DNA of 35,404 bases, from the NCBI GenBank assembly GCA_030167865.1, contig JALAGF010003106.1, positions 1 to 35,404 on the forward strand, given 5' to 3'. The translations under genes were made by a program, and so were the position numbers. The notes below the pieces were generated by a model. The model had not been told where the DNA came from, did no database searches, and saw nothing but the letters and a program-made list of their open reading frames with translations. The stretch is from Craspedostauros australis. Lineage: Eukaryota. Shown in pieces: positions 3,358 to 29,036 of this stretch (positions are counted from its first letter, which is position 1; every line of letters begins with the position of its first letter).

Positions 3358-6300
3358 ATGTCGAACTCCGTGGAAAGCTACGAAGAAGTGGAGGAGCTCG
3401 TTGTGGGAACGAGCAACCACTCCTACGAGGAGATTGTGGTAAGCAGCGACGAGGAAGACTTTGTGGAGGAGATTATTGAAGACGATGATGAAGAAGAGAT
3501 GAGCGCGGAGCAGCTGCTGGCGAGCTTGCATTCCTCCTTCCAGGCCCTGGTCAAGCGTCCCTCCAATATCGAGACCTCCCTCGCGACTGTGCGCGAGTTG
3601 GAGGAGCACACCGGCTTGGACCTGTCCGATGACAACCTGGATCGCGGCCCGCACAGCGCGCAGCACAGCGAACTCATCGAGGAGGAGCTTGTGGACGACG
3701 ACGAATACGACAACGACGACGAATACGACGACATCAACGACTCGCGACGCCAGTCCGAACACAGCGTCTCGATGGCGGATTCGGCAAGCGTGGAGTTCGA
3801 TCTGGGTTCCTTCACGGAGGAGGGCACGGATGAGGACTCCGAACCGGAAGACTACGACGCCGCGTGTCGCAGGCTCATTTCCAGCGTCTTCCGCAACGTC
3901 GACAACGTCGATCCCGATGACATGATCCGCCGCTGCGACTTGCCCACCCTCTACATGCACCTCAAGCAGCAGTACCGCGCCAAGGTCCGCAACAAGCAGA
4001 TCCTGCCGGACGGCGATGTTGCCGAGATGGGGAATTGGGAAGATTTTGACAGCAGCAAGGTCTCCTTTTCCGGAGGACCCTTCTTCCCGACCATGTCCGA
4101 TCACACCGCCACCTCGATGGCCAGCAAGGATTCCACAGGCAACAAACGCGCCAGGTCCAACGCATCGGCCGATCACAACAACAAACGCGGCAATTGGGAT
4201 GGCTTTCAGGATGATGCGGATGATCCCTTTGGCATTTCGTCCCCCAGCGCGTCGGCCATGCAACGCAAACGTCCACCCAAACCGGACTCGGCGACAAAGC
4301 CAGCGGCAACATCGGCACCGCCCCCGCCATCATCAACGTCCTCATCGTCGTCGTCGTCATCATCTTCGTCATCGCAATCCAGTTTTGGACAAGAGAGTGA
4401 CAACGAGAGCAGTGATGATGCTGCCACCGCTACTGATGTGCCAGCAAATGCGCCGATGGACTCCGTTGATACGTCACAGATACCTCACCCAACTGCATCT
4501 GCAACTACGTCTGCTTCTCCTCTCACTGAACAACAATCCTCAACGATACCATCATCGTCATCCTCCGCATCGACCAACGTTGCGACAAATACACAACAAC
4601 AACAACAGCCGCAAGAGATTGGCAGGCAATCGTCTCACGAGGAACAGCTGGAGCAGGTCCAACGTTGGTTGGATCGCAACGCCGATGACCCCGATGATTA
4701 TCCCTCCGCCAACCAGATCCTCATCACGCTCCTCTACAAGGATGACACGGAACACGATGTCGAGACCATGGTGCACCGCACACCGCCCAAGGAGCTATAC
4801 CGCTACCTCCAGCAGTACTACTGGTACAAGGTGCACAACAACGAACTCACCAAGTCATCCTTCCAGGAAGCCTACACCTCCTACCTGAACGATCCGGAGG
4901 CCTTCATCGCGGAGCAGCAGGAGAAGCTGTACCAGGAACGAGCTGCCAAGAAGCAGGAGCTCAGCGCAGAGGAGAAAATGAGGAGACAACGCGCCAAACT
5001 CCTTGCCAACGACGTTCTCAAACGCAAGGAGGAGATGGAACGCGAAGAGGAGCGGCGCAAGGAGAATCTCAGACAGCTGCGAGAAGATGCAGAGCGCGAG
5101 CTCGAACGTCTCGTTCGGGAAGCGGAAGAGAAGAAGGCCGCGCAGGAAGCCGCGCAGCGTGAGCAGCTCGCTGCTCAAGCCATGCAGGATGATTCTTCCG
5201 GCTCCGATTCATCCTCGTCGTCGTCATCAGCCTACGGCAGCCCGGAACGCGGTGGTAGCGACGCGTCATCGTCGACGTCATCGCAGGATGCCGGCGATGC
5301 GAATATCGCATCCATCCTGTACGCAGCCAGCAACGACGACGCGGATGCTCCCGCCATCAATGCGGACTCTTCCAAAACTGCAATCACCCAAGAGAAGGAA
5401 CGTCTTATCGAGGAAGAACGACGTCTCGCGCAGGCCTTGGGCAAGCTGCAGGCCGAGAAGGACAGACTGGCCGGCAAAGTCTCGCAGTTCTCAGGAGACG
5501 TATCCACATCTTCGAACGAGGATGACATGGATTCTGCCGGCGAGCCAACCTCTGGTTCCTCCGATGCATCCAGCGACGAAGACGACGCCGCCTACCTCCT
5601 CAACGACAAGTCTCGCGCGTCCGATTCCAACCGGTATTACCAGAACTGGTCGGAGAGTTCCAATTCTGCCGCCAACACCCAGAATTCAGCGCACTCCGTG
5701 GACACCGCGGAACGTGAACAGGGCATGTCCTTGCTGGCGGGCGCATCAGGGCGCGGCAACACCAATTCCGATGCATCCAACGAATCGCGACAAGTCCAAC
5801 CTCCACAACGCATGTTACAGAGCGATGATACATCCTCGTCGGATTCGTCGTCGGATTCGGATTCCTCCGAGTCCCTCCATGACGACTACGAGCACATGGA
5901 GGACTCGTCCCATCACACCGAGCCTTCCGAACGAGAACAACGCAGCAAGCCTCCGCCGAAACGCACCAAATCCGAAGAGGACAGGATCCAGGAACTCTCC
6001 GAGATACTGGAATTCAAGCACCGCCTCGAGAAGCAAAAGTTGCAAGACGAGAAACGCAAGTTGGATGAGCGTAAATTCGAATTCGAAACCTTTCTCATCG
6101 ACAAGGCCAAGTCGTTGGACGACCGCCGACGGGCGGAGGAGACCAAGCTGTTGGGGGAAGCAACGGCCCGCGAAGACCAACGCAAAGCGGATGATGCCAA
6201 GTACCGCAAGGAACTGGAGAAGCTGGAGAAGGATCACCAACGCCTGCAGAAGCGCGGCAGCAAGGACATGAGGAACTTGGAATCCAAGCGCATTCAGTTG

Positions 6301-9300
6301 CACAATCGCGCCAACAAGCAATTCGACATCATCGAAGAGGAGTCCAATCGAATCGAAGATCAGCTGGCGCAGGAAGGCAAGGTCATGGACGATAAGCTCG
6401 CTCACGCGCAAGCGCGGTTGGACGCTCTGCTTTCCAGCACGGCGGACGATGACAACGGCGAGCAGGGAGGGGGCAGTCCCGAAAAGGAGAAGGGGGCGGG
6501 TTTCTTTGGTCGTCTCAAGAACCGCAAAAAGCAGGCCAGCATCGAACAGGAACGACGCAAACAGGAGCGCTTGATGCAAAAGAAGCTGAAAGAAATCGAA
6601 GTCGGAAAGGAGATCAGCGAAATTGCCGAGGAAATCGAGCGGCTCGAAGAGGTAGCTTCTGAATCGGAAAAGAAGCAGGTCGCACGCAAGGCACGGCTGG
6701 AGCAGGAATTGCAATCCTCCGATCGATCCATCGAGACCGAGATCAAGCAACTGCAGCACGATCTGGAGAAGCAGGAGAAGAAGTACGCCAAGGAGTCCGA
6801 CCGATTGAACGGTGAACTGCAGAACCTGCAGAACCTCCGCGTGAGCGACGAGCAGTGGTTTGCAAGAGAGTCAGGCCTCATCGAACAGCGCTGGAGAGAT
6901 TCGCAGGATGGGCTCAAGGATGAAGCAGCAACGCAACGCGAGCAGCAGAAGGTTGCCTACGACGCACTCCAGCAGCAGGCCGACGAGCTCAACGATCAGA
7001 ACAAGCAAAAGGACCTGCGGATACACAAGGAGAAGAGTGGTTCGAAGAAGGACAAGCACGTGCGATTCATCGCAAACGAGTCCGTGGCACAGCCCGAGCC
7101 CGCCGAAGAAACCGCTGCCGAACCAGCGAAGGATGATTCGGCGCCTGCTGCGGAAGAAAGCGCGCCGACCAATGAGAAACAGCTCGCAGAGCAGACCAAG
7201 CGCAGCGATTTCATTGAGCACGAGCTGGGAGCGATTTTGAAACGAGCAGCACAAGAGATGGATGGTGGGATGGAACGGGAGGCAGTGGATGCACTGGCGC
7301 AGGCCGCTTTCCGTGTCACGTACACCAAGAATTACTACGATGTGACGACCGATGACTTCTTGTACTTTCCCACGGTGGCAGAAGCAATGCTGAATTACTC
7401 CATCTTTGAAGACGCCAACGAATTCTACGGCGAAGAATTCCCAGTGGAGTACACATCAGAGATCAGGACCGTCGCAGCAATGCTCGGCACGGACGGTGAC
7501 GTCGACGACGAGTATCGCAACAACATGTCCATGGATCTCGACCTGCAGAAGGAGTACATGGGACCCAGCGCGACCTTCGACTTGCACAAGTATCTGCCTG
7601 CTGAGACTGCAAGAACACCGGCAGCAGATCAAGTAGAACAACCAGAGAAAGATCCATCTATGCAGCAACAAGATCCCGATACGGAAAAGTACAAGAAGGA
7701 GCAGGAGTTGCGAAGCGGTCTCATCCAGGATGAGCTCGGCACGATTCTGAAGCAAGCGACAGAAGAAATGGGAGAAAAGATCGAGTCCCATGCCTTCGAC
7801 GCACTCATTCAAGCTGTCTTCCGTGTCGCGTACACCCAGAGATTCTACGATGTGACGTCCGATGACTTCGTCTACTTCCCGACCGTCGCCGAGTCGATGC
7901 TCAACTATTCCGTCTTCGAGGAATCCAGACAATTCTGCGTCAACGGGGATCCTTTCCCGCTCGATTACACCTCGGAAATGAGGAACGTCGCAGCGGCAAT
8001 CAGCGTAAATGAAGATGTCGACACGGAGTACCGAGAGAATATGTCGACGGATCTGGACCTCAAGGCCGAATTTATGGATCCATCCCCCTCCTTCGATCTC
8101 AGCGAGTACTGCGAGGTGCAGAAGAAAGAGTTTCAATCATCCATTCTTATGGACACGTACAGCTTGGCGTTCGCTGAGCTGGATCCAATCACCGAGACGG
8201 CGGACACCGCCCCCGAGAGCATCAGTCCGGAGACTGATTCATCCTACCGCGAAGACTCGAAGAATGACGAGGATGCTGACAACACTGCCGTCTACGACTT
8301 TGTCGTTCCTGACCATCTGATGCATGTCAACCAACCAAAGGCGGAATCAAGCGACGATGGAATGTCGATTGGATCGGGCGATATCTTCGAGGATCCATCA
8401 ACTCAACGTGGCCCAGTCTCTTTGGTCGAGGCAGCAAGACGTGCCAAGGAAAAGATCGACGAGCAGAATGCTTCTGGTAAGGTCAATCACGACGACGCAA
8501 ATCAGAATTCCTCCTCGTCGAAACAACGCAAGGTTGAGGCAGAGATCGTCGTTCCTGATCATCTGATGTACGTAAACCAACCGAAATCAGAGATGAGCGA
8601 CGATGGCGATTCAATTGGGTCCACGGATTTGTTCGATGCACCGTCATCACCACAACGTCCAGTCACTCTTGTGGAAGCTGCCAAGAGAGCAAAGGCGAAG
8701 ATTGAAGAGCAGAATGCATCGGCGAAGACCAACAACGAGGCGCCAGCTACCCCATCGAAGCCTTCCGCACCAGCCGTGCAAGCGGTCATCCCAGAGCATC
8801 TCCTGTTCGCGAATCAGCCCAAGACCGAGATGAGCGACGATGGTGATTCAATTGGATCCGGCGACATCTTCGACAAGCCATCTGCGTCTCGCGGTCCAGT
8901 CACTCTTGTGGAAGCTGCGAAAAGAGCAAAGGCAAAGATGGAAGAGCAGAATGCGTCAGGCAAAATCAACAACGATTCACCACCTACTCCATCGAAGACA
9001 TCAAAGGCTGCTGTTGCACCTGCGGTCATCCCAGAGCATCTCCTATTCGCGAATCAGCCCAAGACCGAGATGAGTGATGATGGCGATTCAATTGGATCCG
9101 GTGACATCTTCGACAAACCATCCGCATATCAAGCACCAATCAGCTTGGTGGAAGCAGCGAAGCGAGCAAAGGCGAAGATCGAAGAACAGAATGCATTGGC
9201 GAAGGCCAACAACGATGCGCCAGCTACCCCATCGAAGACGTCGAAGGCTGCTGTTGCGCCTGTGGTCATCCCAGAGCATCTTCTGTTCGCGAACCAGCCC

Positions 9301-12300
9301 AAGACCGAGATGAGCGATGATGGTGATTCAATTGGATCCGGCGATATCTTCGACAAGCCATCCGCATACCAAGCACCGGTCACTCTTGTGGAAGCAGCCA
9401 GGCGGGCAAAGGCGAAGATGGAAGAGCAGAATGCGTCAGGCAAAATCAACAACGATTTGCCACAAACTCCGTCGAAGGCATCGAAGGCCGCTGTTGCGCA
9501 TACAGCAATTCCAGATCACCTTTTGCATGTCAATCAACCCAAGACAGAGATGAGTGACGATGGTGATTCAATTGGATCCGGCGACATCTTCGACGAGCCA
9601 TCCGCATACCAAGCACCGGTTAGCTTGGTGGAAGCTGCCAAGCGGGCGAAGGCGAAGATTGAGGAGCAAAATGCATCTGGAACGACCGATGCCGCAGCAC
9701 CAGCCACCCCATCCAAGACATCGAAGGCTGCTGTTGCGCCCGCAATCATCCCAGAGCACCTCCTGTTCGCGAATCAGCCCAAGACCGAGATGAGTGACGA
9801 TGGTGACTCCATCGGATCCGGTGAAATCTTCGACAAGCCATCCGCATACCAAGCACCGGTTAGCTTGGTGGAAGCAGCGAAGCGAGCAAAGGCGAAGATC
9901 GAAGAGCAGAATGCATTGGCGAAGGTCAACAACGATGCGCCAGCTACCCCATCGAAGACGTCGAAGGCTGCTGTTGCGCCTGTGATCATCCCAGAGCATC
10001 TTCTGTTCGCGAACCAGCCCAAGACCGAGATGAGTGATGATGGTGATTCGATTGGATCTGGTGATATCTTCGACAAGCCATCCGCATACCAAGCGCCGGT
10101 TAGCTTGGTGGAAGCTGCCAAGCGGGCGAAGGCGAAGATAGAACAGCAGAATGCATCAGCGAAGACAAGCAACGATGCGCCAGCCACCCCATCGAAGGCA
10201 TCGAAGACTGTTGCACATGCTGCAATCCCAGAACATCTCCTGTTCGCGAATCAGCCCAAGACGGAAATGAGTGACGATGGTGATTCAATTGGATCTGGTG
10301 ATATCTTTGACAAACCATCGGCATACCAAGCACCGGTCACGCTTGTGGAAGCAGCTAGAAGGGCAAAGGCAAAGATGGAGGAGCAAAACGCGTCGGACAA
10401 GGTCAATGCTGAGGTGACAGCAACTGCAGCAGCAGCAACAACAACATCGAAGACCCCAAGCTCCAAGTCGGTGGCGCAGTCGCCTGCTGCGAAACTGGCA
10501 GCAGAACACGGCAGTCCATCGAGGGCACCACGCCAGGTGCAGTTGACGCCGTCGGAGCTAGAATACTACGAATCAGAATGCCGCCGACTTGCCAAGCGTA
10601 CGTTTGATGAAAATGAAGTTGACATCGATGACATGATTGCAAACTCGGACATCCATGACCTCTACAACTACCTCAACAAGAACCAATGGTACAAGACCCA
10701 GCAAAAATCTACCGAGAGTTTCTCAAGGGGATCAGCATCGCCCTCAGTCACACAGAGCCCACGTACACGTTCAAGACATTCATTCCCACAGGCCCGCGTC
10801 GAGGCCAATGGAGGCAGCAACGCTGAACCAGTCTCCTCCAGGGCAACATCTGTTACCTCCGGCGGAAGGACGTTGTTTGATGCACTTGGATTGTCTGCCT
10901 CCGATTTGCACAGCTCTGCGCCATCAACAGCCAAGGACGGACCGCAAAGCACCCAAATATTTGCAGGATCTGCGAAGGAAGGGCGGATGACACTATTCGA
11001 CGCGCTTCGAGGACCAAATGATGCGCCTTCTGGAGCAAATGCAAGCGCAAGTGCAAATGGAGGATCTGGATCGGCTGGAACCAAAACTCTTGCCGAGGCC
11101 TTGGGTTTACCATTGGAGCATGCAGGTAACACCGTGTCAGACAACAGGCCTGTCAGTTCCACCCATGATCAATCGCCGACGTCACCACAGCGCAAGGGCC
11201 GAAAGTCTTTGTTTGACGCAATGGTCGCTTCGTCAGCTTCGACAGGCGCTACTTCGCCCTCTACGCAAGCAGGACAGCCAGCTGGATCTGGTAAGACGCT
11301 GTTCGATGCACTGGGTGGTGAGGGGCGAGGGGGCACAGATCAGCGATCGATGTCTTCCCCCACCCCTCGACCACAGACTCAACGCGCATTGCCAGGGTCG
11401 GGCCAAGGTGGCCGAAAGACTTTGTTCGATGCTCTTGACATGTCTGGAACAAAGAAGCAAGGAAGCCAACCAAAGCAACCGCAATCTGGTGGCGGAAAAA
11501 CTCTTGCGGCGGCCTTGGGTCTTTCTTCTATCGAGGATGACCGTTCGCCTACACCGAAGCAAACAACCCGCGAGAACAAAACACTGTTCGGTGCCCTGGG
11601 GCTCCACGATCCCGACAGCCAGAGTGCGAAAACCGCTTCACCGAAGCAACCACAAAACACTGGACAACAAGCCATCTCAGGAACACAACATAGACAGAAG
11701 ACGCTGTTCGACGCACTTGGTTTGCAACCATCAGACACAAGCACGACACCGAAAGCCTCAAGTAAACTGCAGACACCATCTCAGAGGAACATACAGCAGA
11801 CGGTTGGATCTGGACAGAAGGGACAGAAGACATTGTTCGATGCTCTGCGCGTCCCCAAGGACGAACAAGCAATGACAGCATCAACCGAGAGATCTGGCGC
11901 CGGCGGAACAAAAACTCTTGCCGAAGCTTTGGGGCTGACCACGGATGATGCCAGCACCACGTCCGACGCGCCCACACACCAAGTCAAGAATGGCGGTGGC
12001 AAAACACTACTTGACGCCCTCCGAATGACACCTCCAAGCAAAGCTGCCCAAACGGAAAATCGGAAAGCTTCGAAGCCATCAAGTCCTCCAAAATCAATTC
12101 AAAACGGGCAACGCACGCTATTCGATGCATTGGGCATTCCGCCACAGCAACCACAGCCACAAGCACAAGCACAGCAGCCAGAATTACAACAATCATCCAG
12201 AAAGCCGCAACCCAAGACGCTTGCGGATGCCTTGGGCTTATCAGTGCCCCATGACACTGTCACTCCCCATGATCGGCCAGCAGCAGGAACGCCGCAGAAG

Positions 12301-15300
12301 ACATTGTTTGATGCCCTGAGGCAACCCGGGTCCGGCGGAGAGGCTGCACCGACAACGGCCGTGGGTTCGCCGCGGATGCAGGTAGGATCACTGGGCCAAG
12401 GACGGCCAGGGACTGGATCCGGAAAAGGAGGCCGCAAGACGTTGTTCGACGCTCTCGGTCTCTCGCCTCCTCCATCGTCAAACCCAGCAGCAACTGCATC
12501 ATCCACAAACGGCGATGGTCGCTCGGGCGTGGCAGGAACGAAGACTCTTGCAGAAGCCTTGGGACTTCCGATGGATAATGCTGTGATATCCGCTCCGATC
12601 GCTTCGAGCACTTCGAATGGAAGATCTGCTCCTACCCAACGAGCTCCACAGGCCGCCAACGGCAGCAGTGGTAGACAAAAGACTTTGTTCGACGCGCTCG
12701 GGTTATCTCCTCCAGGCGGAGCTGCAGATGCCACTGCCCCTACTGTCGGAGCCATTGATGTCGGTGCGGCTAATACATCGCGCAGTGTGCCTTCCATCGG
12801 CAATGGCGGGAAGACTTTGTTCGATGCGCTTGGTGTCACATCAGCTGGCGAAAGAGGAGCAGCCACTCCTGCACTTGACAACCACGAAATTCCTAAGTTG
12901 CAACCACAGCAACCAACTCAGACCGGATCTGGTCGAGGCGGGCAGAGGACGCTGTTTGATGCGCTCGGCCTCTCGGGCCAGCAAGTTGCCAAGGAACAGC
13001 AACGCGTAACACCACCTTCTCAGGTTGCACCAAGGAAGGCAGGAACGAAGACCCTCGCAGAGGCTTTGGGAATTGCTCCTTCACAGAATCAGGATTCTCG
13101 TGCGGTTGCTGCTGTGCCAACGGGAGCGCCATCTCGACTTGATGTTGCTAGTCTTGGAGATGAGGGTACAAAGACCCTGTTCAGTGCGCTCGGTATCCAG
13201 ACGCCAGCCACTCCGACATCAAAGCCACAGCAGCAGCAGGAACGATCGGCTACCACAACCGACAGTCGCACAGGAGCATTGGGGACAAAGACTCTCGCAG
13301 AGGCTTTGGGACTATCTGCTGCGCAGATTCAGGGTCCCGCCGCGGTTCCTACCGTCGCAAATGTGATGTCATCCGAACCAAGTGTCGCTGGTTCTGCTCA
13401 AGAGACCCCGAGAACACTCTTCGATGCGCTTGGTATCCAGGCACCAACCACCGCAACTGCCAAACCAGCAATGCAACAAGAACGATCGGCTACCACAACC
13501 AACAGCCGCACAGGAGCAATGGGGACAAAGACTCTCGCCGAAGCTTTGGGCCTATCTGATGCGCAGACTCATCATCCTGCCGCGGTTCCTACCGTCGCAA
13601 AGGCGGTGCCATCCGAACCAGGTGTCGCTGGTTCTACTCAAGAGACCCCAAGGACACTCTTCGATGCACTTGGCATCCAGGCGCCGGCCGTTACAAGCTC
13701 GAAGCCACAACAACAAGAGCGATCGTCTGCCACAATCAACAGCCGGACAGGAGCAATGGGGACAAAGACTCTCGCCGAAGCTTTGGGACTATCTGCTGCG
13801 CAGATTCAGGATCCCGCCGCAGTTCCTACCGTCGCAAAGGTGGTGTCATCCGAACCAAGTGTCGCTGGTTCTACTCAAGAGACCCCAAGGACACTCTTCG
13901 ATGCACTCGGCATCCAGGTGCCGGCCGTTACAAGCTCGAAGCCGCAGCAGCAGATAGAACGATCGGCTACCGCAACCAACAGTCGCACAGGAGCATTGGG
14001 GACAAAGACTCTCGCCGAAGCTTTGGGACTATCTGCTGCGCAGACTCATCATCCTGCCGCGGTTCCTACCGTCGCAAAGGCGGTGCCATCCGAATCAAGC
14101 GTCGCTGGTTCTGCTCAAGAGACCCCAAGAACACTCTTCGATGCGCTCGGCATCCAGGCACCAACCACCGCAACTGCCAAACCAGCAATGCAACAAGAAC
14201 GATCGGCTGCCACAACCAACAGCCGCACAGGAGCATTGGGGACAAAGACTCTCGCCGAGGCGTTGGGATTATCTGCTGCGCAGACCCATCATCCTGCCGC
14301 GGTTCCTACTGTCGCAAAGGTGATGCCATCCGAACCAAGCGTCCCTGGTCCTGCTCAAGAGACCCCGAGGACACTCTTCGATGCACTTGGCATCCAGGTG
14401 CCGGCCGTTACAAGCTCGACGCCACAGCAGCAACAAGAACGATCGTCTGCCACAATCAACAGCCGGACAGGAGCAATGGGGACAAAGACTCTCGCCGAAG
14501 CTTTGGGACTATCTGCTGCGCAGACTCATCATCCTGCCGCGGTTCCTACCGTCGCAAAGGCGGTGCCATGCGAATCAAGCGTCGCTGGTTCTGCTCAAGA
14601 GACCCCAAGAACACTCTTCGATGCGCTTGGCATCCAGATGCCGGCCACTTCGGCATCAAAGCCACAACAGCAGATAGAACGATCGGCTACCACAACCGAC
14701 AGTCGCACAGGAGCATTGGGGACAAAGACTCTCGCCGAGGCGTTGGGATTATCTGCTGCGCAGACCCATCATCCCGCCGCGGTTCCTACCGTCGCAAATG
14801 TGATGCCATCTGAACCAAGCGTCGCTGGTTCTGCTCAAGAGACCCCGAGAACACTCTTCGATGCGCTTGGCATCCAGGCGCCGGCCACTTCGGCATCAAA
14901 GCCACAACAGCAGATAGAACGATCGGCTACCACAACCAACAGCCGCACAGGAGCATTGGGGACAAAGACTCTCGCAGAGGCTTTGGGACTATCTGCTGCG
15001 CAGACCCATCATCCCGCCGCGGTTCCTACTGTCGCAAAGGTGGCGTCATCCGAACCAAGCGTCGCTGGTTCTGCTCAAGAGACCCCGAGAACACTCTTCG
15101 ATGCGCTTGGTATCCAGGCACCAACCACCGCAACTGCCAAGCCAGCAATGCAACAAGAACGATCGGCTGCCACAACCAACAGTCGCACAGGAGCATTGGG
15201 GACAAAGACTCTCGCCGAAGCTTTGGGCCTATCTGATGCGCAGACTCATCATCCTGCCGCGGTTCCTACCGTCGCAAAGGCGGTGCCATCCGAATCAAGC

Positions 15301-18252
15301 GTCGCTGGTTCTACTCAAGAGACCCCAAGGACACTCTTCGATGCACTTGGCATCCAGGGACCGGCCGTTACAAGCTCGAAGCCGCAGCAGCAAGAACGAT
15401 CGGCTACCACAGCCGACAGCCGCACAGGAGCATCGGGGACAAAGACCCTCGCAGAGGCGTTGGGATTATCTGCTGCGCAGATTGAAGATCGCAACGTAGT
15501 TCCGCCCACGGCGCCGGTGCCAACCGCCACTACTCCCGAGCAAGGAAACTCGAGGACCTTGTTTGGTGCACTCGGCATCCAGACAGCGTCAGCGCCAGCG
15601 CCAGCCCCCGCAGGACAGACCACCACAGCCCCGGCGAGGCAGCAACCCCAAAAACGACCAGGCGGCCCATCAGATCGCCGCACGGGAGCAGCGGGCACAA
15701 AAACGCTCGGCGAAGCCCTTGGGCTTTCTCCGGCCCAGATCGCGGCTCCTCCCGCACCAAGACCACACCCGCAGCCAAGGAGTCAGAATTCTCAGAGATC
15801 ATTGACACAGCAGCAACAGCAGCAGCAAGCATCAGTGGCGAACGAGAAACGATCTGGTGCTGCTGGGACCAAGACACTTGGAGAAGCGTTGGGTCTGTCG
15901 ATGGCGGATATTTCAGGGAATCGAAATCAAGCACCAATTGTACTGGGTCGCTCGTCACGCGGTACCAACAATTCGCAACTGCCCTATAACCCTCAATCGC
16001 GAGGCGACAGCGACAGTGACTCCGAGTATGGCAGCAGCAGTGACAGTTATACCACATCCAGCAGCGGCTCTGGCTCTGACTACACATCCGGTTCGTCGTC
16101 CGGCTCGTCGTCGAGCCCTGTCGATAGGTTTGAAAGCGCCGATGGCAGCGCGAGGAATAGAGCTCCTCTTGAACCAAGCTCCAAGATTGTTGCCGCCAGT
16201 CGTGGAAGTCTCTTCGATTCATTGAGCAGTCCAAGGAACGATGCGGCAAAGAAGGTCGCTTTTGTCGACCCATCATCTGCATACGTGATAGTGCCAAAAA
16301 AGCGTGAGGCTTCGGTGGAGCAGCCGTCCTCTGGTTTGTCCATGAACGAAGCTATCTCATACATCGAAAAGCAGATGGGCAACGAACGGCACAGCACAGG
16401 ATCTGAGAAGATTCTGATGGATATCGCCAATCAGGCGACGAACGGTTTGCATGCCAAGGTGCCGCTGCCGCTGCCGCTGACACAGAAACGGGCATCTACA
16501 AAGCCACCAGCACCAGCGCAGCCATCGACGCCGGTGTCTAAATTGAGCCCGTCCAAGTCGACGACCATCCACTCGTCTTCGAAGCTGGAATGGTGGAAGA
16601 AGAATGGAAAGCAAGCCGTCTCCCAGGCTCGCGACGGCGTAGCACGCACCGAAGGAGCACCAACGCCCAGCAATGCTTTCGTGGCCGTCTCCCATCGCGA
16701 CGTGAGCGTTTTCGAACAAACCAGCGGAGAACACAGCAGCAGCAGCGCCGCGGCGCCCCCAAGTCCCAGTAGCAGCAGGCTCCGGCCGGAGATCCTTCCA
16801 GCTGTTGCGCCTCGCACAGACAGAGAACGAACGCCGTTGTCGAAATTGGACGCCCAATCGGAGAAGCAGCGCATGTCGCGGCTTTCGAAAAGGATTGAGA
16901 AGGCCCACAACCCCGAGCCTCGCACCAAGAATCACGTTAGTTTCACCTTGCCTTCGGCACCCGATGCGGAGCAGACTGAGCGGGCTGTGACGACGCCCAA
17001 CAAGCTCGAAGAGAAACGCCGCAGGGTGGCAGAGCAGCGCCGTGCTGTCGAGGAGAAGCTTGTCAGGAGTGGCGCAGCACCATCAGGAACACCAGAGAAG
17101 AGCCAAACGCCAGGTTCTGCTCGTACTACAACCGCTGCATCTCCATCTGCTTCAACAGCCGCCAGCCAGAGTCCAAGTCGACTGGAGGAGGCCAGGCGCC
17201 GTATCGCAGACGCCAGAAAAGCAAGAGAAGAACGTAAGAACGCTGCTGCTGGGGACAGCGACAACCCTGCGCAAGCAACAGGAACAGCAGCAGCGGTATC
17301 CACGACCGTCACCGCTGCCGGCGCTGATGATATCTCATCACAGCCTCGAGCACTAGAACCTCAAACGCCTCCGCGAACACCTAGCAGCGACGCTCGAACG
17401 AAGGTGCGCACGCCAGGCAGCGTTGCCAGCGCCAACTCCAGCGATCCGCGCCTAGTGGCCCTCCAGGAGAAACGCCGCAAGCTCGCTGAAGCACGTGCAA
17501 GAAGGGAGGAATTATCCAAAGCCAACACCAAGCCTTCACCATCTCCGAAGCTATCACAGCAGATGGCCCGAACCAATGATACACCTTCTCATATCGAGGC
17601 CTTGGCCGTGGGACCAACGTCAGAAGTGGTAACACAAAAGGCAGACGACTCCGTCAGTCAGCTCCGCCATGACGAGGAAGATGGCCACATCACGCATGCC
17701 ATGGTGCATGAAGTGGAGCGCATGTCCTTGCTGATTCGGAAGTACGAGCGCAGGATGGAGATGATGTGCAAAACTCTAATCATGCTGGAAGACGGCGAGG
17801 TGGGCGACAGTTCTGCAGCAACAGCAGCAGCCAGCCAGCAACTCCCACAACTGTACCACCACGTGGTCCAACAGCCATGGTTCACTGCTCATGCGGAGGG
17901 CGACCACTCCAGTCGATCCTCCTTGTTGGCAACTCCTGTAGTTACCCGCAGCGCAACCAACGGCCAAGCACCGGCGAGAGCCGCAGCCGCAGCAGACGCC
18001 AAGTACCGGCTGAGCCCCACAGGAAAGGCGTTCCTGAGGATGGACGGGCCGGTGGGAGCGGACATCGGTCGCTTCCTGGCGTCATTCGATTCCGTCGACA
18101 CGGTGAACATTTCTGTCCTCAAATCCAACTGGGAACAGATCTTCAACTTATCCAGAGATCATCAGAGCCATCGCATTCTGCTGAAGATCGACGATCTTTT
18201 GAGTGTCTGCGTCGAATCGAACTTGATCGAACTTGTTGAACGCCAACGATAA
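3358..18252 (+). CDS. Giant 4964-aa modular repeat protein of unknown function (acidic N-terminus, coiled coils, duplicated globular domain, two 80-aa tandem arrays, small C-terminal domain)
   Basis: Single 14,895-nt stop-free frame. The ATG follows a C/A-rich leader (aaaagacATG). Indels between repeat units preserve frame and many differences are synonymous. No hydrophobic signal peptide or TM segment is evident. Confidence 0.9.
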   Translation: MSNSVESYEEVEELVVGTSNHSYEEIVVSSDEEDFVEEIIEDDDEEEMSAEQLLASLHSSFQALVKRPSNIETSLATVRELEEHTGLDLSDDNLDRGPHSAQHSELIEEELVDDDEYDNDDEYDDINDSRRQSEHSVSMADSASVEFDLGSFTEEGTDEDSEPEDYDAACRRLISSVFRNVDNVDPDDMIRRCDLPTLYMHLKQQYRAKVRNKQILPDGDVAEMGNWEDFDSSKVSFSGGPFFPTMSDHTATSMASKDSTGNKRARSNASADHNNKRGNWDGFQDDADDPFGISSPSASAMQRKRPPKPDSATKPAATSAPPPPSSTSSSSSSSSSSSSQSSFGQESDNESSDDAATATDVPANAPMDSVDTSQIPHPTASATTSASPLTEQQSSTIPSSSSSASTNVATNTQQQQQPQEIGRQSSHEEQLEQVQRWLDRNADDPDDYPSANQILITLLYKDDTEHDVETMVHRTPPKELYRYLQQYYWYKVHNNELTKSSFQEAYTSYLNDPEAFIAEQQEKLYQERAAKKQELSAEEKMRRQRAKLLANDVLKRKEEMEREEERRKENLRQLREDAERELERLVREAEEKKAAQEAAQREQLAAQAMQDDSSGSDSSSSSSSAYGSPERGGSDASSSTSSQDAGDANIASILYAASNDDADAPAINADSSKTAITQEKERLIEEERRLAQALGKLQAEKDRLAGKVSQFSGDVSTSSNEDDMDSAGEPTSGSSDASSDEDDAAYLLNDKSRASDSNRYYQNWSESSNSAANTQNSAHSVDTAEREQGMSLLAGASGRGNTNSDASNESRQVQPPQRMLQSDDTSSSDSSSDSDSSESLHDDYEHMEDSSHHTEPSEREQRSKPPPKRTKSEEDRIQELSEILEFKHRLEKQKLQDEKRKLDERKFEFETFLIDKAKSLDDRRRAEETKLLGEATAREDQRKADDAKYRKELEKLEKDHQRLQKRGSKDMRNLESKRIQLHNRANKQFDIIEEESNRIEDQLAQEGKVMDDKLAHAQARLDALLSSTADDDNGEQGGGSPEKEKGAGFFGRLKNRKKQASIEQERRKQERLMQKKLKEIEVGKEISEIAEEIERLEEVASESEKKQVARKARLEQELQSSDRSIETEIKQLQHDLEKQEKKYAKESDRLNGELQNLQNLRVSDEQWFARESGLIEQRWRDSQDGLKDEAATQREQQKVAYDALQQQADELNDQNKQKDLRIHKEKSGSKKDKHVRFIANESVAQPEPAEETAAEPAKDDSAPAAEESAPTNEKQLAEQTKRSDFIEHELGAILKRAAQEMDGGMEREAVDALAQAAFRVTYTKNYYDVTTDDFLYFPTVAEAMLNYSIFEDANEFYGEEFPVEYTSEIRTVAAMLGTDGDVDDEYRNNMSMDLDLQKEYMGPSATFDLHKYLPAETARTPAADQVEQPEKDPSMQQQDPDTEKYKKEQELRSGLIQDELGTILKQATEEMGEKIESHAFDALIQAVFRVAYTQRFYDVTSDDFVYFPTVAESMLNYSVFEESRQFCVNGDPFPLDYTSEMRNVAAAISVNEDVDTEYRENMSTDLDLKAEFMDPSPSFDLSEYCEVQKKEFQSSILMDTYSLAFAELDPITETADTAPESISPETDSSYREDSKNDEDADNTAVYDFVVPDHLMHVNQPKAESSDDGMSIGSGDIFEDPSTQRGPVSLVEAARRAKEKIDEQNASGKVNHDDANQNSSSSKQRKVEAEIVVPDHLMYVNQPKSEMSDDGDSIGSTDLFDAPSSPQRPVTLVEAAKRAKAKIEEQNASAKTNNEAPATPSKPSAPAVQAVIPEHLLFANQPKTEMSDDGDSIGSGDIFDKPSASRGPVTLVEAAKRAKAKMEEQNASGKINNDSPPTPSKTSKAAVAPAVIPEHLLFANQPKTEMSDDGDSIGSGDIFDKPSAYQAPISLVEAAKRAKAKIEEQNALAKANNDAPATPSKTSKAAVAPVVIPEHLLFANQPKTEMSDDGDSIGSGDIFDKPSAYQAPVTLVEAARRAKAKMEEQNASGKINNDLPQTPSKASKAAVAHTAIPDHLLHVNQPKTEMSDDGDSIGSGDIFDEPSAYQAPVSLVEAAKRAKAKIEEQNASGTTDAAAPATPSKTSKAAVAPAIIPEHLLFANQPKTEMSDDGDSIGSGEIFDKPSAYQAPVSLVEAAKRAKAKIEEQNALAKVNNDAPATPSKTSKAAVAPVIIPEHLLFANQPKTEMSDDGDSIGSGDIFDKPSAYQAPVSLVEAAKRAKAKIEQQNASAKTSNDAPATPSKASKTVAHAAIPEHLLFANQPKTEMSDDGDSIGSGDIFDKPSAYQAPVTLVEAARRAKAKMEEQNASDKVNAEVTATAAAATTTSKTPSSKSVAQSPAAKLAAEHGSPSRAPRQVQLTPSELEYYESECRRLAKRTFDENEVDIDDMIANSDIHDLYNYLNKNQWYKTQQKSTESFSRGSASPSVTQSPRTRSRHSFPQARVEANGGSNAEPVSSRATSVTSGGRTLFDALGLSASDLHSSAPSTAKDGPQSTQIFAGSAKEGRMTLFDALRGPNDAPSGANASASANGGSGSAGTKTLAEALGLPLEHAGNTVSDNRPVSSTHDQSPTSPQRKGRKSLFDAMVASSASTGATSPSTQAGQPAGSGKTLFDALGGEGRGGTDQRSMSSPTPRPQTQRALPGSGQGGRKTLFDALDMSGTKKQGSQPKQPQSGGGKTLAAALGLSSIEDDRSPTPKQTTRENKTLFGALGLHDPDSQSAKTASPKQPQNTGQQAISGTQHRQKTLFDALGLQPSDTSTTPKASSKLQTPSQRNIQQTVGSGQKGQKTLFDALRVPKDEQAMTASTERSGAGGTKTLAEALGLTTDDASTTSDAPTHQVKNGGGKTLLDALRMTPPSKAAQTENRKASKPSSPPKSIQNGQRTLFDALGIPPQQPQPQAQAQQPELQQSSRKPQPKTLADALGLSVPHDTVTPHDRPAAGTPQKTLFDALRQPGSGGEAAPTTAVGSPRMQVGSLGQGRPGTGSGKGGRKTLFDALGLSPPPSSNPAATASSTNGDGRSGVAGTKTLAEALGLPMDNAVISAPIASSTSNGRSAPTQRAPQAANGSSGRQKTLFDALGLSPPGGAADATAPTVGAIDVGAANTSRSVPSIGNGGKTLFDALGVTSAGERGAATPALDNHEIPKLQPQQPTQTGSGRGGQRTLFDALGLSGQQVAKEQQRVTPPSQVAPRKAGTKTLAEALGIAPSQNQDSRAVAAVPTGAPSRLDVASLGDEGTKTLFSALGIQTPATPTSKPQQQQERSATTTDSRTGALGTKTLAEALGLSAAQIQGPAAVPTVANVMSSEPSVAGSAQETPRTLFDALGIQAPTTATAKPAMQQERSATTTNSRTGAMGTKTLAEALGLSDAQTHHPAAVPTVAKAVPSEPGVAGSTQETPRTLFDALGIQAPAVTSSKPQQQERSSATINSRTGAMGTKTLAEALGLSAAQIQDPAAVPTVAKVVSSEPSVAGSTQETPRTLFDALGIQVPAVTSSKPQQQIERSATATNSRTGALGTKTLAEALGLSAAQTHHPAAVPTVAKAVPSESSVAGSAQETPRTLFDALGIQAPTTATAKPAMQQERSAATTNSRTGALGTKTLAEALGLSAAQTHHPAAVPTVAKVMPSEPSVPGPAQETPRTLFDALGIQVPAVTSSTPQQQQERSSATINSRTGAMGTKTLAEALGLSAAQTHHPAAVPTVAKAVPCESSVAGSAQETPRTLFDALGIQMPATSASKPQQQIERSATTTDSRTGALGTKTLAEALGLSAAQTHHPAAVPTVANVMPSEPSVAGSAQETPRTLFDALGIQAPATSASKPQQQIERSATTTNSRTGALGTKTLAEALGLSAAQTHHPAAVPTVAKVASSEPSVAGSAQETPRTLFDALGIQAPTTATAKPAMQQERSAATTNSRTGALGTKTLAEALGLSDAQTHHPAAVPTVAKAVPSESSVAGSTQETPRTLFDALGIQGPAVTSSKPQQQERSATTADSRTGASGTKTLAEALGLSAAQIEDRNVVPPTAPVPTATTPEQGNSRTLFGALGIQTASAPAPAPAGQTTTAPARQQPQKRPGGPSDRRTGAAGTKTLGEALGLSPAQIAAPPAPRPHPQPRSQNSQRSLTQQQQQQQASVANEKRSGAAGTKTLGEALGLSMADISGNRNQAPIVLGRSSRGTNNSQLPYNPQSRGDSDSDSEYGSSSDSYTTSSSGSGSDYTSGSSSGSSSSPVDRFESADGSARNRAPLEPSSKIVAASRGSLFDSLSSPRNDAAKKVAFVDPSSAYVIVPKKREASVEQPSSGLSMNEAISYIEKQMGNERHSTGSEKILMDIANQATNGLHAKVPLPLPLTQKRASTKPPAPAQPSTPVSKLSPSKSTTIHSSSKLEWWKKNGKQAVSQARDGVARTEGAPTPSNAFVAVSHRDVSVFEQTSGEHSSSSAAAPPSPSSSRLRPEILPAVAPRTDRERTPLSKLDAQSEKQRMSRLSKRIEKAHNPEPRTKNHVSFTLPSAPDAEQTERAVTTPNKLEEKRRRVAEQRRAVEEKLVRSGAAPSGTPEKSQTPGSARTTTAASPSASTAASQSPSRLEEARRRIADARKAREERKNAAAGDSDNPAQATGTAAAVSTTVTAAGADDISSQPRALEPQTPPRTPSSDARTKVRTPGSVASANSSDPRLVALQEKRRKLAEARARREELSKANTKPSPSPKLSQQMARTNDTPSHIEALAVGPTSEVVTQKADDSVSQLRHDEEDGHITHAMVHEVERMSLLIRKYERRMEMMCKTLIMLEDGEVGDSSAATAAASQQLPQLYHHVVQQPWFTAHAEGDHSSRSSLLATPVVTRSATNGQAPARAAAAADAKYRLSPTGKAFLRMDGPVGADIGRFLASFDSVDTVNISVLKSNWEQIFNLSRDHQSHRILLKIDDLLSVCVESNLIELVERQR
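7201..8109 (+). repeat. Tandemly duplicated ~131-aa globular domain within the giant ORF (7201-7593 and 7711-8109)
   Basis: RSDFIEHELGAILK...FRVTYTKNYYDVTTDDFLYFPTVAEAMLNYSIFE...DLDLQKEYMGPSATFDL aligns with RSGLIQDELGTILK...FRVAYTQRFYDVTSDDFVYFPTVAESMLNYSVFE...DLDLKAEFMDPSPSFDL. Confidence 0.9.
8302..10404 (+). repeat. Coding tandem array A: 9 copies of a ~240-bp (80-aa) unit
   Basis: Unit IPEHLLFANQPKTEMSDDGDSIGSGDIFDKPSAYQAPVSLVEAAKRAKAKIEEQNA...TPSK... starts at 8302, 8548, 8785, 9025, 9265, 9505, 9745, 9985 and 10222. Confidence 0.95.
10864..15897 (+). repeat. About 44 copies of a short motif [KR]TL(F/A)(D/E)AL(G/R)(L/I) separated by S/T/G/Q/P/A-rich linkers
   Basis: Manual count from the translation: 22 irregularly spaced copies (10864-13200), 20 inside array B, and 2 after it. 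Confidence 0.9.
13201..15582 (+). repeat. Coding tandem array B: 9 regular plus 1 degenerate copy of a ~240-bp (80-aa) unit
   Basis: Unit ...ERSATTTNSRTGALGTKTLAEALGLSAAQTHHPAAVPTVAKAVPSEPSVAGSAQETPRTLFDALGIQ, with high nucleotide identity between copies. Confidence 0.95.
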
Positions 18253-19274: not shown

Positions 19275-21617
19275 ATGCAAGCGACCATGAGCGTCGCTGT
19301 GTCTGGACAAGAGAGCTTCGTGGTGGAGGAGGAGATCCTCCTGGACGACGACGATGATGATGACGACTATGAGTGCACCACGGAGGAGATCGTGGAGCCC
19401 GATGACTTGGTGTCCGCCATTCACGCATCTCTGATGGAGTACAAGACGCAGCAGCTGGAACCGCACGTGGCGCAAGGCATTCGCCAACGGCGCAGTTCGC
19501 TGGGTGGGGGCATGCGACGAGCGTCCATGTCGGACTACTCTGTCGAGATCGTCGACGACGGAGCCAATCGCACCGACGCCGAGACGGACGAGGACGAATA
19601 CGAGGAGCAGGTCATCGAGCAGTGGTTCCGACGCGACGAGATGCCCGACGATCTCGAGACGGCGTGCCGCACGCTCATCGGCATCGTCTTCAAGGAGGAG
19701 GATGTGGATGCGGAGACCATGATGCGCCGATCGCCGCTGCCGGAGCTGTACCGGTATCTCAAGCAGCACTACGATTACAAGGTGCACACCGAGCAGGTCC
19801 AGGATGAGGAACAGCAAAAGGAGACGAAGCAAACCAGTTTGCAGGATATCTTCCGACGCAAGGCGCCGCCGGCGGACTCATCCGCAGCGCAGACGTCTGG
19901 GGCTGCTGCGGCCAGCGAGAATGGTGGCGGAGTCAACAACGCCAGCAGCAGCGTTGGCGATACCTCTGTTTTGGAAGAGGAGGTGCTGGAACCGTCCATG
20001 GCAGCGGTGTCGTCGGAGATGGAAGAAGAAGAGGAGATCATCCTTGAAGACGAGAACTTCAGCGAGGAGGTCATGCTCGATGAAACGGAAGTGGTGGTGG
20101 AGGATGACGAAGACGATGGTGCCGATGATGTGCATGAGGAGGAAGTTGTGGACGACGATGACGATGACGACGACGAAAATAATGGCGACGGCGTCACGCT
20201 CAGATCATCGGACGATGAAGCCGTCGTGAGGCATAGCCACAGCCCGCTGGACACCCATTCGTTCGACACGGACACCTCCGGACCCGAGATACTGCTCAAT
20301 TCCGGCATCGGCGATGATACGACGGTATCCACATTCCACAACTCGACGGACGACATCTACGCGGTTGGCGGCGGCGAATCGCTGACGCTCGATACGGACA
20401 GACGGTCCCGCGACAGGCGGCGTCTCAAACGCGATGAGAGCCAATCCTCGCTGGTCATGAAGGAGCTACTCATCTCGGTCGTGCCTGGCATGATCTCCGT
20501 GTCCAACGCGGACACCAACATCAACATGGGATTGGACTTTGATGATCAGATCCTGCAGAGCTGGCTGGGCGCCGAGAACGATAATAGCAACGAACCGGAC
20601 GACTACGAAGGTGCGTGCCGGCAGCTCATACCCGTCATCTACCGCGGCATGAACGTCGACGCGGATGTCATGGTCAAGCGCATGCCGGTGCGAGAATTGT
20701 ACAAGTACCTCAAGCAGCATTACTGGTTCGTCATCCACCGCAGAGGTACGGATGATTACGCATCCACCAAACGATTTGATGATAGCAACCTCAATCGGAA
20801 ATCCATGACCATTGCGGAGATCGAGGAGGATGCTTTGTTGCACGAATTGAGCAATCATCGAGATTTGCCACCACCCGCAGACGACGATGATCTCAAGGCA
20901 GGAGCATCGTCGGAGGACAGCGACAGCGATGACGAGGCCGACGTCACCATGATGGGTGCGTCCAATCAACACATCCACGTGGTCTTGACCAACAAGAGAG
21001 AATCAAGCAGCGAAAAGAACAAGGTCGCAACAGCTGCCGACGCCACCGACGACGACGTCGACGACGGCGAGCCTTCCCAACGACTCAATCCCAGCACACG
21101 TAATGAGGACGACGACGACGGCAGCAGCGTGGTCTACGAAAGTGTCGCGTCGCTGTCGGAAGCCGATCCCAACGTATCCAGCAACACGCTCGACGTGAGC
21201 GTGAACACGATGGAAATCCGTAATGTGCACGATGATTCAGACTATGTTGAAGAAGAGCACGTCACAGACGAGGAGGTGCTGATTGACGAGGATGACGAGG
21301 ATGTCGTTGACGAAACCGAAGTCGTGGAGGAAGAAGTCCTCGATAGTGTTGGATCCAGACATGATGATGTTCATGAACATGAACAAGCGTTTTCGCAAGA
21401 TGCGACACCACAGCAAATACAGATACAGCAAGAGTCAGAAATCGAGGAAGAGGATGTGATAGATGATTTCGAAGAGGAAGAGATTGTCGTCGATGAAGAC
21501 GACTTCGTGGAAGAGGAAGTGGTGGAAGAAGTTGAGGAGGAGGATTACGGCGCAGAAGAGCTATTATCCGATCTTCGTGCCGACTTGATGGCGTACCGCT
21601 CGGAGAATTATTCATGA
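19275..21617 (+). CDS. 780-aa hyperacidic (D/E-rich) protein, partial paralog of the upstream giant protein
   Basis: Long ORF with two copies of the ~50-aa 'PDDY..ACR.L...ELY.YLKQHY' module (19638-19784, 20592-20735), which also occurs three times in the giant ORF. Confidence 0.88.
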   Translation: MQATMSVAVSGQESFVVEEEILLDDDDDDDDYECTTEEIVEPDDLVSAIHASLMEYKTQQLEPHVAQGIRQRRSSLGGGMRRASMSDYSVEIVDDGANRTDAETDEDEYEEQVIEQWFRRDEMPDDLETACRTLIGIVFKEEDVDAETMMRRSPLPELYRYLKQHYDYKVHTEQVQDEEQQKETKQTSLQDIFRRKAPPADSSAAQTSGAAAASENGGGVNNASSSVGDTSVLEEEVLEPSMAAVSSEMEEEEEIILEDENFSEEVMLDETEVVVEDDEDDGADDVHEEEVVDDDDDDDDENNGDGVTLRSSDDEAVVRHSHSPLDTHSFDTDTSGPEILLNSGIGDDTTVSTFHNSTDDIYAVGGGESLTLDTDRRSRDRRRLKRDESQSSLVMKELLISVVPGMISVSNADTNINMGLDFDDQILQSWLGAENDNSNEPDDYEGACRQLIPVIYRGMNVDADVMVKRMPVRELYKYLKQHYWFVIHRRGTDDYASTKRFDDSNLNRKSMTIAEIEEDALLHELSNHRDLPPPADDDDLKAGASSEDSDSDDEADVTMMGASNQHIHVVLTNKRESSSEKNKVATAADATDDDVDDGEPSQRLNPSTRNEDDDDGSSVVYESVASLSEADPNVSSNTLDVSVNTMEIRNVHDDSDYVEEEHVTDEEVLIDEDDEDVVDETEVVEEEVLDSVGSRHDDVHEHEQAFSQDATPQQIQIQQESEIEEEDVIDDFEEEEIVVDEDDFVEEEVVEEVEEEDYGAEELLSDLRADLMAYRSENYS

Positions 21618-28589: not shown

Positions 28590-29036
28590 AGAATAGAATA
28601 GGTAGAGAGTATTTCGCAGAGTATCAAATGCTCCAGCTTCTTCTGCCGTGGTCGTGAGAGGAAGCAACTTGAACAATCTGTGATCGCCCATAAATGAAAA
28701 GTGTCTGCCTTCGTCAGGTGCACCAAGTCACCACCGCTGATTGCTGGCTGTCTTGACCGTTGCCCTCGTCTGCAAGTATGTCATTTCCCAGCCTCGTGCT
28801 CGTGTCAGAGCTCATATTCACAGGTACATGACGTACGTAGCCACACGAGGTCAGTCTGCAAGGCACGGGAATTCCGTTGAAACTGACACTCGATCGCACT
28901 TGACCAAGACGACCACTCTAGAAACGCAATCACGATTCGACTACAGCGACTAATATGCTGGACCAGTAGAAGAAAATATAACGTCTATAACCGTTATTGT
29001 TTTAAAATCCGAACACCAGGCTAATCGCAAATAAAC

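Follow-up and report, generated by a model that had tools for sequence, protein, structure and literature searches.

A giant single-exon diatom protein with a field of 45 short motifs, possibly a multivalent scaffold

Contig JALAGF010003106.1 of Craspedostauros australis (assembly GCA_030167865.1), analysed here as a window of 35,404 nucleotides, carries on its plus strand a 14.9-kb open reading frame (ORF, 3358..18252) for a largely disordered protein of 4,964 residues. Sequence comparison identifies this giant protein as a much-expanded member of an existing, unnamed diatom family. It is a strongly expanded variant within that family, marked by a field of 45 short motifs that is seen nowhere else in the collections searched. 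The pattern of codon differences argues strongly that the motifs are held under purifying selection while the spacers between them drift. From this architecture we infer an intracellular, multivalent 'sticker-and-spacer' scaffold or tether, a role to which we give about an even chance. A preliminary description of the window, drawn from the letters alone, had considered the protein possibly lineage-specific. This stands in so far as nine of nine eukaryote-named relatives are Bacillariaceae, but the protein is no orphan, and it is the motif field, rather than the whole protein, that the relatives are without. Coordinates below are those of the window, on the plus strand unless noted.

A single-exon gene in an unnamed diatom family

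The ORF opens with ATG and runs as a single exon through 4,964 codons plus a stop. It contains no in-frame stops, against 75, 138, 116, 99 and 131 in the other five frames, which bears out the one uninterrupted 14.9-kb frame of 4964 aa described previously, and the window sequence contains no N. The product has the acidic MSN/MSS-type N-terminus of its relatives and a C-terminus that aligns to the ends of 12 of them. Between five in-register units of the first of two tandem arrays, differences at codon positions 1/2/3 number 66/82/280, and the codons that differ divide into 199 synonymous and 127 nonsynonymous cases. DNA identity between units is 77-94% in this array (5 units) and 83-97% in the second (7 units), and this divergence argues against copies inflated by the assembly, without being a substitute for long reads. 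That the frame arose by chance or was inflated in assembly and represents no gene is hardly credible. The absence of the giant protein itself from word-indexed searches of 5.8 billion proteins would fit such an artefact, but the lack of stops over 14.9 kb compared with 75-138 in other frames, homologues along the full length, repeat units diverged to 77-97% identity and the synonymous bias of their differences all speak against it. This reading is already very unlikely, and contradicting long reads would alter copy numbers only. Given the codon-position bias, the diverged repeat units, 202 library matches and collinear full-length relatives, we take the ORF to be a real single-exon nuclear diatom gene.

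The protein is probably intracellular. Its mean Kyte-Doolittle hydropathy in a 19-residue window reaches a maximum of 1.08 over the whole length, with no hydrophobic segment, and the N-terminal 40 residues are acidic and without a hydrophobic core on hydropathy inspection, no signal-peptide predictor having been used. Together these features support a non-secreted product, and they separate it from secreted and cell-wall diatom proteins (frustulins, silaffin-like), given an acidic N-terminus without a signal-peptide-like hydrophobic core. A Pfam scan of the giant protein found no family above cut-off (best HTH_Mga, 17.2 bits against a cut-off of 23), and six relatives together with a neighbouring 780-aa gene gave no families at E<=0.1. 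The earlier statement that no enzyme domain, signal peptide or transmembrane helix is recognisable is thus upheld by the Pfam null, the maximum hydropathy of 1.08 and the acidic N-terminus. Likewise, no clear match to a characterised family emerged from Pfam, Protein Data Bank (PDB) sequence or fold searches.

Relatives are nevertheless numerous. A HMMER search with residues 1300-2480 against 1.84 billion representatives returned 202 proteins at E<=1e-3, of which 105 reached <=1e-10 and 25 reached <=1e-30. The full-length relatives, of ~1,700-3,450 aa, are collinear with the giant ORF from the acidic MSN/MSS-type start to the last residues. Among the clusters of 30 relatives looked up, 10 carried names, nine of them Bacillariaceae diatoms and one a bacterium (Tenacibaculum). 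The diatom names comprise Nitzschia inconspicua KAG7348323.1 (3308 aa), four proteins from Bacillariaceae sp. metagenome-assembled genomes including KAL3922617.1 (3120 aa), Cylindrotheca fusiformis, Tryblionella compressa, Pseudo-nitzschia heimii and Nitzschia sp. Nitz4, and all diatom relatives are annotated as 'hypothetical' or are unnamed. As far as names go, these results support a family restricted to raphid pennate diatoms. Three relatives (P0014, P0027, P0030) are records of MMETSP, whose data are transcriptomes, and relatives of the giant protein therefore appear to be transcribed.

By local hidden Markov models (HMMs), the relatives present in order a helical module (2-3 copies), an alpha/beta domain (2-4), an ~80-aa 'NQPK' unit (0-5) and a C-terminal domain. 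In common with the giant protein they have an acidic head, helical modules, alpha/beta domains, a charged rod, NQPK units, a W-W-K-x-N-G-K motif, basic helices and the terminal domain. They differ in being 1,500-3,200 residues shorter and only ~29-35% identical over matched stretches, in having 0-5 NQPK units compared with nine, and in being without the [KR]TL[FA][DE]ALG motif field. In four of them (P0002, P0004, P0006, P0007) the rod follows the alpha/beta domains, the reverse of the order in the giant protein. Word-indexed searches of the 5.8 billion proteins found no match for the whole length (against 2730-8687-aa proteins) or for residues 1300-1660 (against shorter proteins). These blanks are partly due to the word filter, since HMMER found relatives of residues 1300-2480. 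The accessions of the relatives were named nowhere in the literature found, and the motif strings gave only a chance match. Among the publications listed on diatom giant proteins, raphid gliding, actin and proteomics, none concerns the family by title or abstract.

A field of 45 short motifs

Residues 2504-4179 (10867..15894) contain 44 copies of the motif [KR]-T-L-[FA]-[DE]-A-L-G, located by regular expression and near-copy search, and a degenerate copy lies beyond them at 16201..16227 (aa 4282-4290). The total of 45, comprising 43 pattern matches (aa 2504-4172) and two near-copies at aa 2544 and 4283, is close to the estimate of about 44 short amphipathic motifs made at the outset. Motifs are spaced 27-72 residues apart, with a median of 39.5, and the spacing is irregular outside a tandem part. 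The motif occurs in an F/D type, with Phe in 24 copies, and an A/E type, with Ala in 16, and Leu or Ile usually comes next after the Gly. The 1,686 residues of aa 2500-4185 are devoid of Trp and Tyr, and the motifs account for 24 of their 26 Phe and 109 of their 128 Leu. With Thr-x-x-Asp/Glu at its start and Gly at its end, the motif would, by general helix-capping rules, form a capped amphipathic helix of one-and-a-half turns.

The tandem part of the field, array 2 (13174..15555), was identified by Tandem Repeats Finder (TRF) and alignment and consists of ten ~80-aa units, in each of which one motif is of the F/D type and one of the A/E type. TRF reports a 240-nt period over 13185-15481 (9.6 copies, 86% matches), ten units being counted in the protein. 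Position 3 is Leu in 43 of 43 copies by way of five different codons and position 6 is Ala in 43 of 43 through all four codons, where the search pattern itself fixed Leu at position 3 and admitted only Ala or Ser at position 6. Across the eight in-register units of array 2, from which units of 79 and 75 aa were excluded, the 21 motif columns show 120 synonymous against 7 nonsynonymous pairwise codon differences, compared with 185 against 365 in the 59 spacer columns, an odds ratio for motif versus spacer of 34. Upstream of the tandem part, some 20-odd motifs (aa 2504-3272) are kept among spacers that can no longer be aligned.

Searches for the field beyond this protein were negative. Scans of metagenome contigs gave 593 pattern matches for the motif region and 169 for the 80-aa unit alignment, none confirmed as a relative, and a word-indexed search of the 5.8 billion proteins with aa 2480-3290 found no match among shorter proteins. 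The sole good motif copy among the relatives is in KAL3922617.1, between its NQPK units and its C-terminal part.

A rival possibility is that function resides in the conserved chassis alone, and that the field of 45 motifs and the additional NQPK units are tolerated expansions without specific binding. The relatives manage without the field and with 0-5 NQPK units, and tandem arrays expand readily, the youngest units here being 94-97% identical in DNA. Such neutral growth is nonetheless at odds with the purifying selection on the motifs (120 to 7 against 185 to 365 in the spacers) and with the persistence of the 20-odd motifs outside the tandem array among unalignable spacers, and we consider it unlikely. 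A functional, multivalent field is the reading that we prefer.

The NQPK array

Array 1 (8299..10458, aa 1648-2367) comprises nine ~80-aa NQPK units, delimited by TRF, protein alignment and HMM. The TRF period is again 240 nt, over 8671-10385 (7.2 copies, 81% matches), with nine units counted in the protein, so that the two 80-aa arrays described previously are both recovered, with 9 and 10 protein units. Each NQPK unit has three invariant parts: a P-[DE]-H-L..N-Q-P-K segment, an acidic stretch of Ser/Asp that closes with [DE][ILV]F[DE], and a basic helix. The [DE][ILV]F[DE] motif is present in all nine units and T-P-S-K, a full site of the cyclin-dependent kinase (CDK) type, in seven. Over the whole protein there are 20 [ST]-P-x-[KR] sites compared with 7.2 +/- 2.5 in shuffled sequences, seven of the 20 being the T-P-S-K of array 1. 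The NQPK units of full-length relatives number 0-5 against the nine here, and several have S-P-x-K/R immediately after the Phe site. A complex prediction for the alpha/beta domain with one NQPK unit, run without alignments, returned a score of 0.00 and a mark of 0.34.

Three library proteins, P0011 (1839 aa), P0026 (2106 aa) and P0161 (1702 aa), have a single module type amplified alone, with 12 or 8 NQPK-like units without other domains or seven alpha/beta copies. The modules thus also exist in other architectures, or these proteins are fragments of larger genes.

Two further resemblances of the NQPK units were set aside. The Tenacibaculum sp. protein P0037 (1425 aa; 'gliding motility-associated C-terminal domain') matched window 8812-9771 at E 5.5e-21 and was judged spurious, because two unrelated 80-residue repeats coincide in phase at 22% identity over several units. 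The case illustrates that E-values between repeats can mislead, the match probably being a periodicity artefact of a bacterial surface protein. The NQPK units share the exact 7-mer L-F-A-N-Q-P-K with a tryptic peptide of mouse MCPH1 (PMC7862653), probably by chance.

Conserved domains and charged tracts

The acidic head (3358..3804, aa 1-149) has comparable counterparts in relatives, and its acidity, noted from the first, amounts to a net charge of -25 over aa 1-100 and -26 over aa 101-200. It is followed by the first copy of the helical module (3805..4026, aa 150-223; self-BLAST, HMM E 1.2e-32). A second copy lies at 4648..4875 (aa 431-506) and is 47-53% identical to the copies of relatives, and a third at 10516..10740 (aa 2387-2461), each located by self-BLAST and HMM. 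Self-BLAST pairs aa 162-215 with 444-497 (31% identity, E 7e-7) and aa 462-513 with 2417-2468. The module is ~50-70 aa long and is present in 2-3 copies per full-length relative by HMM. The preliminary description had counted three copies of a 50-aa helical module. These three were found, and the C-terminal domain (below) contains a fourth that has diverged, giving a count of four in the giant protein, with two more in the neighbouring gene.

Two Pro/Gly-poor tracts of 50-74% charged residues plus Gln follow the second helical module. Tract 1 (4900..5190, aa 515-611) is free of Pro and Gly, with an EKRQLA fraction of 0.79, and rod 2 (5968..7050, aa 871-1231) has a homologous rod in nine relatives at 24.6-34% identity. 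Both had been called coiled-coil-like. Their composition agrees with that description, whereas a heptad signal was recovered only in parts of the second. By a crude, home-made score of hydrophobic a/d occupancy, the surroundings of aa 947 and the stretch aa 1059-1150 alone rise above the 95th percentile of shuffled windows. Tract 1 may be a charged single helix instead of a coiled coil, because its heptad hydrophobic occupancy does not exceed that of shuffles. As far as this goes, the charged tracts are at most helical and partly coiled-coil.

The alpha/beta domain is present at 7180..7545 (copy 1, aa 1275-1396; self-BLAST, HMM) and 7690..8061 (copy 2, aa 1445-1568). These correspond to the duplicated 131-aa domain recognised previously and are 53-60% identical to each other. 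The ~125-aa domain, with invariant Asp, Phe and Pro, was detected by HMM in 124 of 164 proteins scanned, at 2-4 copies per full-length relative. An AlphaFold2 (AF2) model of copy 2 from a 48-sequence alignment (pLDDT 87.2, pTM 0.79) predicts a confidently folded domain. Comparison with known folds gave no counterpart. Foldseek against the PDB reached a best E of 0.18 with TM <=0.27, and exhaustive structural alignment (VIA wide) gave a best Z of 6.0 (a prenyltransferase, root-mean-square deviation (rmsd) 3.4 A over 95 aa), within the noise of the tool. A PDB profile search with the domain alignment (A1) found only flank or coiled-coil noise (best E 0.0031), and the ESM Atlas yielded no usable match for either the alpha/beta domain or the C-terminal 265 aa.

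Downstream of the motif field, a conserved W-W-K-x-N-G-K motif (16585..16611, aa 4410-4418) is common to relatives. Three short basic helical repeats of the L-[EQ]-E-K-R-R type (17005..17667, aa 4550-4770), found by self-BLAST and with similar segments in relatives, lead into the C-terminal domain (17674..18249, aa 4773-4964). The small C-terminal domain of the preliminary description is present, and it is conserved as the extreme end of 12 relatives (29-37% identity, BLASTP E 1e-20 to 3e-33), with 15 invariant columns in an alignment of 13 sequences (A2). The AF2 model from these 13 sequences (pLDDT 80.7) divides into a helical half (~4777-4847), a disordered linker at model residues 77-103 and a winged-helix-like half (~4880-4964). 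The first half aligns with the helical module by hhalign (probability 90.5%, E 1.4e-6, 50 columns) and the HMM of the C-terminal domain also matches the N-terminal helical modules. At the sequence level, the first half is thus a divergent fourth copy of the helical module.

We tentatively describe the last ~85 residues of the model as winged-helix-like. They superpose on winged helices with Z 6.0-7.0 (rmsd 2.7-3.7 A, 66-86 residues), below the tool's noise bar of ~8, and the top 50 structural rows are mostly winged helices, all at Z<8. Among them are binders of proteins and peptides, including the winged helices (WH) of PriA (Z 7.0, 2.8 A, 66 aa) and RPC39 (6.5), RiPP recognition elements (6.4-6.6) and the GATOR1 NPRL WH. 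The scores stay under the noise bar, there is no sequence similarity to these domains, and a common fold says nothing on function. A SWIB/MDM2 fold for the C-terminal domain, suggested by Foldseek rows at E 2-8, was dropped after re-alignment (Z 2.4-3.0), and a PDB profile search with alignment A2 reached a best E of only 0.5.

The NQPK units and the C-terminal domain together bear on whether the protein is a nuclear or chromosome-associated, cell-cycle-gated scaffold, like Ki-67 or the regulators that dock on HEAT subunits of SMC complexes. We regard this as quite unlikely, and have as little confidence in the roles that it would assign, with NQPK units as CDK-switched acidic-aromatic docking sites and the winged-helix-like domain and basic helices binding chromatin. 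Condensin II is bound by the acidic-aromatic short linear motifs HDDFF and YDDYF with adjacent CDK sites (10.1101/2024.05.02.592151, PMC8673838). The [DE][ILV]F[DE] motif in 9/9 and T-P-S-K in 7/9 NQPK units, and the S-P-x-K/R placed right after the Phe site in several units of relatives, bear a loose likeness to this arrangement. Patches rich in K/R also match a simple nuclear-signal pattern, and the winged-helix rows include linker histone at Z ~5. Yet the giant protein contains no instance of the strict pattern [DE][DE][FYW]F, and acidic-Phe motifs are widespread in unrelated systems. The Z values of the winged-helix-like half do not rise above noise, nor is this half basic, and the 7-mer in common with the MCPH1 peptide, as said, is probably chance.

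The regularity of the motif field, with a median spacing of 39.5 residues, together with the rod and the conserved extreme C-terminal domain, would also be compatible with a cytoskeletal ruler or tether, nebulin-like or golgin/pericentrin-like, lining or anchoring filaments specific to raphid diatoms such as raphe actin bundles or the spindle. To this we assign little chance, as we do to its corollary of one motif per filament subunit with the C-terminal domain for targeting. The nine of nine eukaryote-named relatives that are raphid pennate diatoms would accord with a raphe function, and raphe-associated actin bundles and raphid-specific myosins exist (PMC11420354). However, few named relatives were sampled (9 of the 30 looked up), those relatives lack the motif field, and no actin-, tubulin- or motor-binding family was detected by Pfam. 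Outside the tandem part, moreover, the motifs lie anywhere between 27 and 72 residues apart. Neither the nebulin motif S-D-x-x-Y-K (0 occurrences in the protein, with 0 Tyr in the field) nor a WH2-like L-K-K-V (0 in the field) is found.

Proposed mechanism and comparison with known systems

The scaffold reading brings these elements together on the grounds of folded anchors, 45 spaced motifs, the confinement of Phe and Leu to the motifs, and purifying selection on motifs compared with spacers. In the mechanism proposed, the folded ends and the alpha/beta domains would anchor the giant protein and the rod may pair or stiffen the molecule. Each of the motif fields would recruit many copies of a putative partner or, by cross-linking them, produce a gel or condensate, and the CDK-type sites in the NQPK units may gate recruitment through the cell cycle.

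Several observations weigh against this mechanism. Loose versions of the motif pattern gave 2, 1 and 1 matches in 162 proteins (119,473 residues) against 0.45, 0.1 and 2.2 expected, so that the field is absent from relatives and not needed for the core function of the family; it might have been added recently in a single lineage and matter little. The codon pairs behind the odds ratio of 34 are not independent, which overstates its P value, and the motif columns were picked after the alignment had been viewed. The excess of CDK sites is raised by tandem copies, the 'rod' is heptad-like only in part, by a crude test, and the winged-helix assignment has a best Z of 7.0, under the tool's noise bar of about 8.

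A more far-reaching proposal, to which we give only a modest chance, is that the family is a raphid-diatom invention of two domain types without solved relatives. In it a new, 45-fold helical motif would pair with a putative receptor and form, together with the nine CDK-site NQPK units, a cell-cycle-switched gel, fibre or condensate. This would organise a structure peculiar to diatoms, for example the apparatus of mitosis or of the chromosomes, or the actomyosin track of the raphe. The cell-biological roles put forward in the preliminary description (cytoskeleton, wall morphogenesis, gliding or mitosis) are guesses, and the giant scaffold, spacer or molecular ruler that it suggested is likewise a reading of the architecture.

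A giant backbone with arrays of short binding motifs is a kind of system already known, and the protein constitutes no new category. The pyrenoid Rubisco linkers EPYC1 and PYCO1 are sticker-and-spacer condensate proteins, and like the motif field they are disordered chains with hydrophobic residues nearly all in short repeated motifs and with freely evolving spacers. The giant protein differs from them in its acidic N-terminus without a plastid presequence, its far larger size and its folded domains and rod, and it has no known motif similarity. Nebulin rulers, built of ~35-aa modules with S-D-x-x-Y-K, are likewise giant proteins with dozens of ~35-40-residue periods, whereas the protein described here has no match to S-D-x-x-Y-K, a field devoid of Tyr and irregular spacing outside the tandem part. 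FG-nucleoporins have many FG, GLFG or FxFG repeats, in contrast to 5 FG in 4964 aa (2 in the field), 0 GLFG and 0 FxFG. In Sfi1 and in GSBP1/2 of Spirostomum, a giant backbone binds proteins of the centrin family through 23-residue motifs defined by a conserved Trp-Arg/Lys (PMC9946354). The giant protein resembles these in being a very large backbone on which short helical motifs recur at even intervals; theirs number from tens to hundreds and each docks one small partner, and the GSBP proteins also combine coiled-coil segments with internal tandem repeats (PMC9946354). The motif described here is, by contrast, only 8 residues long, no sequence similarity was found, and the field contains 0 Trp and 0 W[RK].

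Four sequence modules have been defined, two of them modelled as confident folds, and these could become profiles with which to map the family among diatoms. Diatoms contribute heavily to primary production, and their division, silica-shell morphogenesis and gliding rest on structures with few known components. The motif field is a natural multivalent bait, and its partner would reveal the cellular system that the giant protein organises. If the partner proves to be a mitotic or motility hub, the protein would open a way into a process not easily approached by genetics; otherwise it still illustrates clearly how a short motif can originate within a disordered protein and multiply under selection.

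Neighbouring loci

One kb downstream, a neighbouring gene (19275..21617, plus strand) encodes a very acidic 780-aa protein with two helical modules (41-48% identity, E 6e-14 to 9e-12) and no Pfam family. The helical module thereby defines a small local family. The C-terminal end of the 780-aa protein resembles the N-terminal head of the giant protein and, judged by sequence, the gene looks like a small paralogue or partial duplicate of the 5' part of the giant gene. Upstream of the giant gene, on the minus strand, lies a gene with an RRM and a CCCH zinc finger (1165-1923), U2AF small-subunit-like by domain content. A DUF6824 gene of 559 aa (26326-28005, minus strand; E 8e-25) lies downstream, followed by a repeat-rich ORF without a Pfam family (29528-30886, plus strand).

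Within the repeat-rich ORF, a tandem repeat at 29531-30274, with periods of 60/213 nt (~3.5 copies of 213, 81% matches), encodes units rich in Ser/Arg/Gly-Thr. The region is open on both strands, with minus-strand ORFs at 29374-30216 and 29381-30241, and a 20-nt tandem repeat (~8 copies, 87% matches) occupies 29033-29223, just 5' of the repeat-rich ORF. A CAACAAAC-type microsatellite at 3266-3337, with periods of 13 and 30 nt, stops ~20 nt short of the start codon of the giant gene, presumably within its 5' leader.

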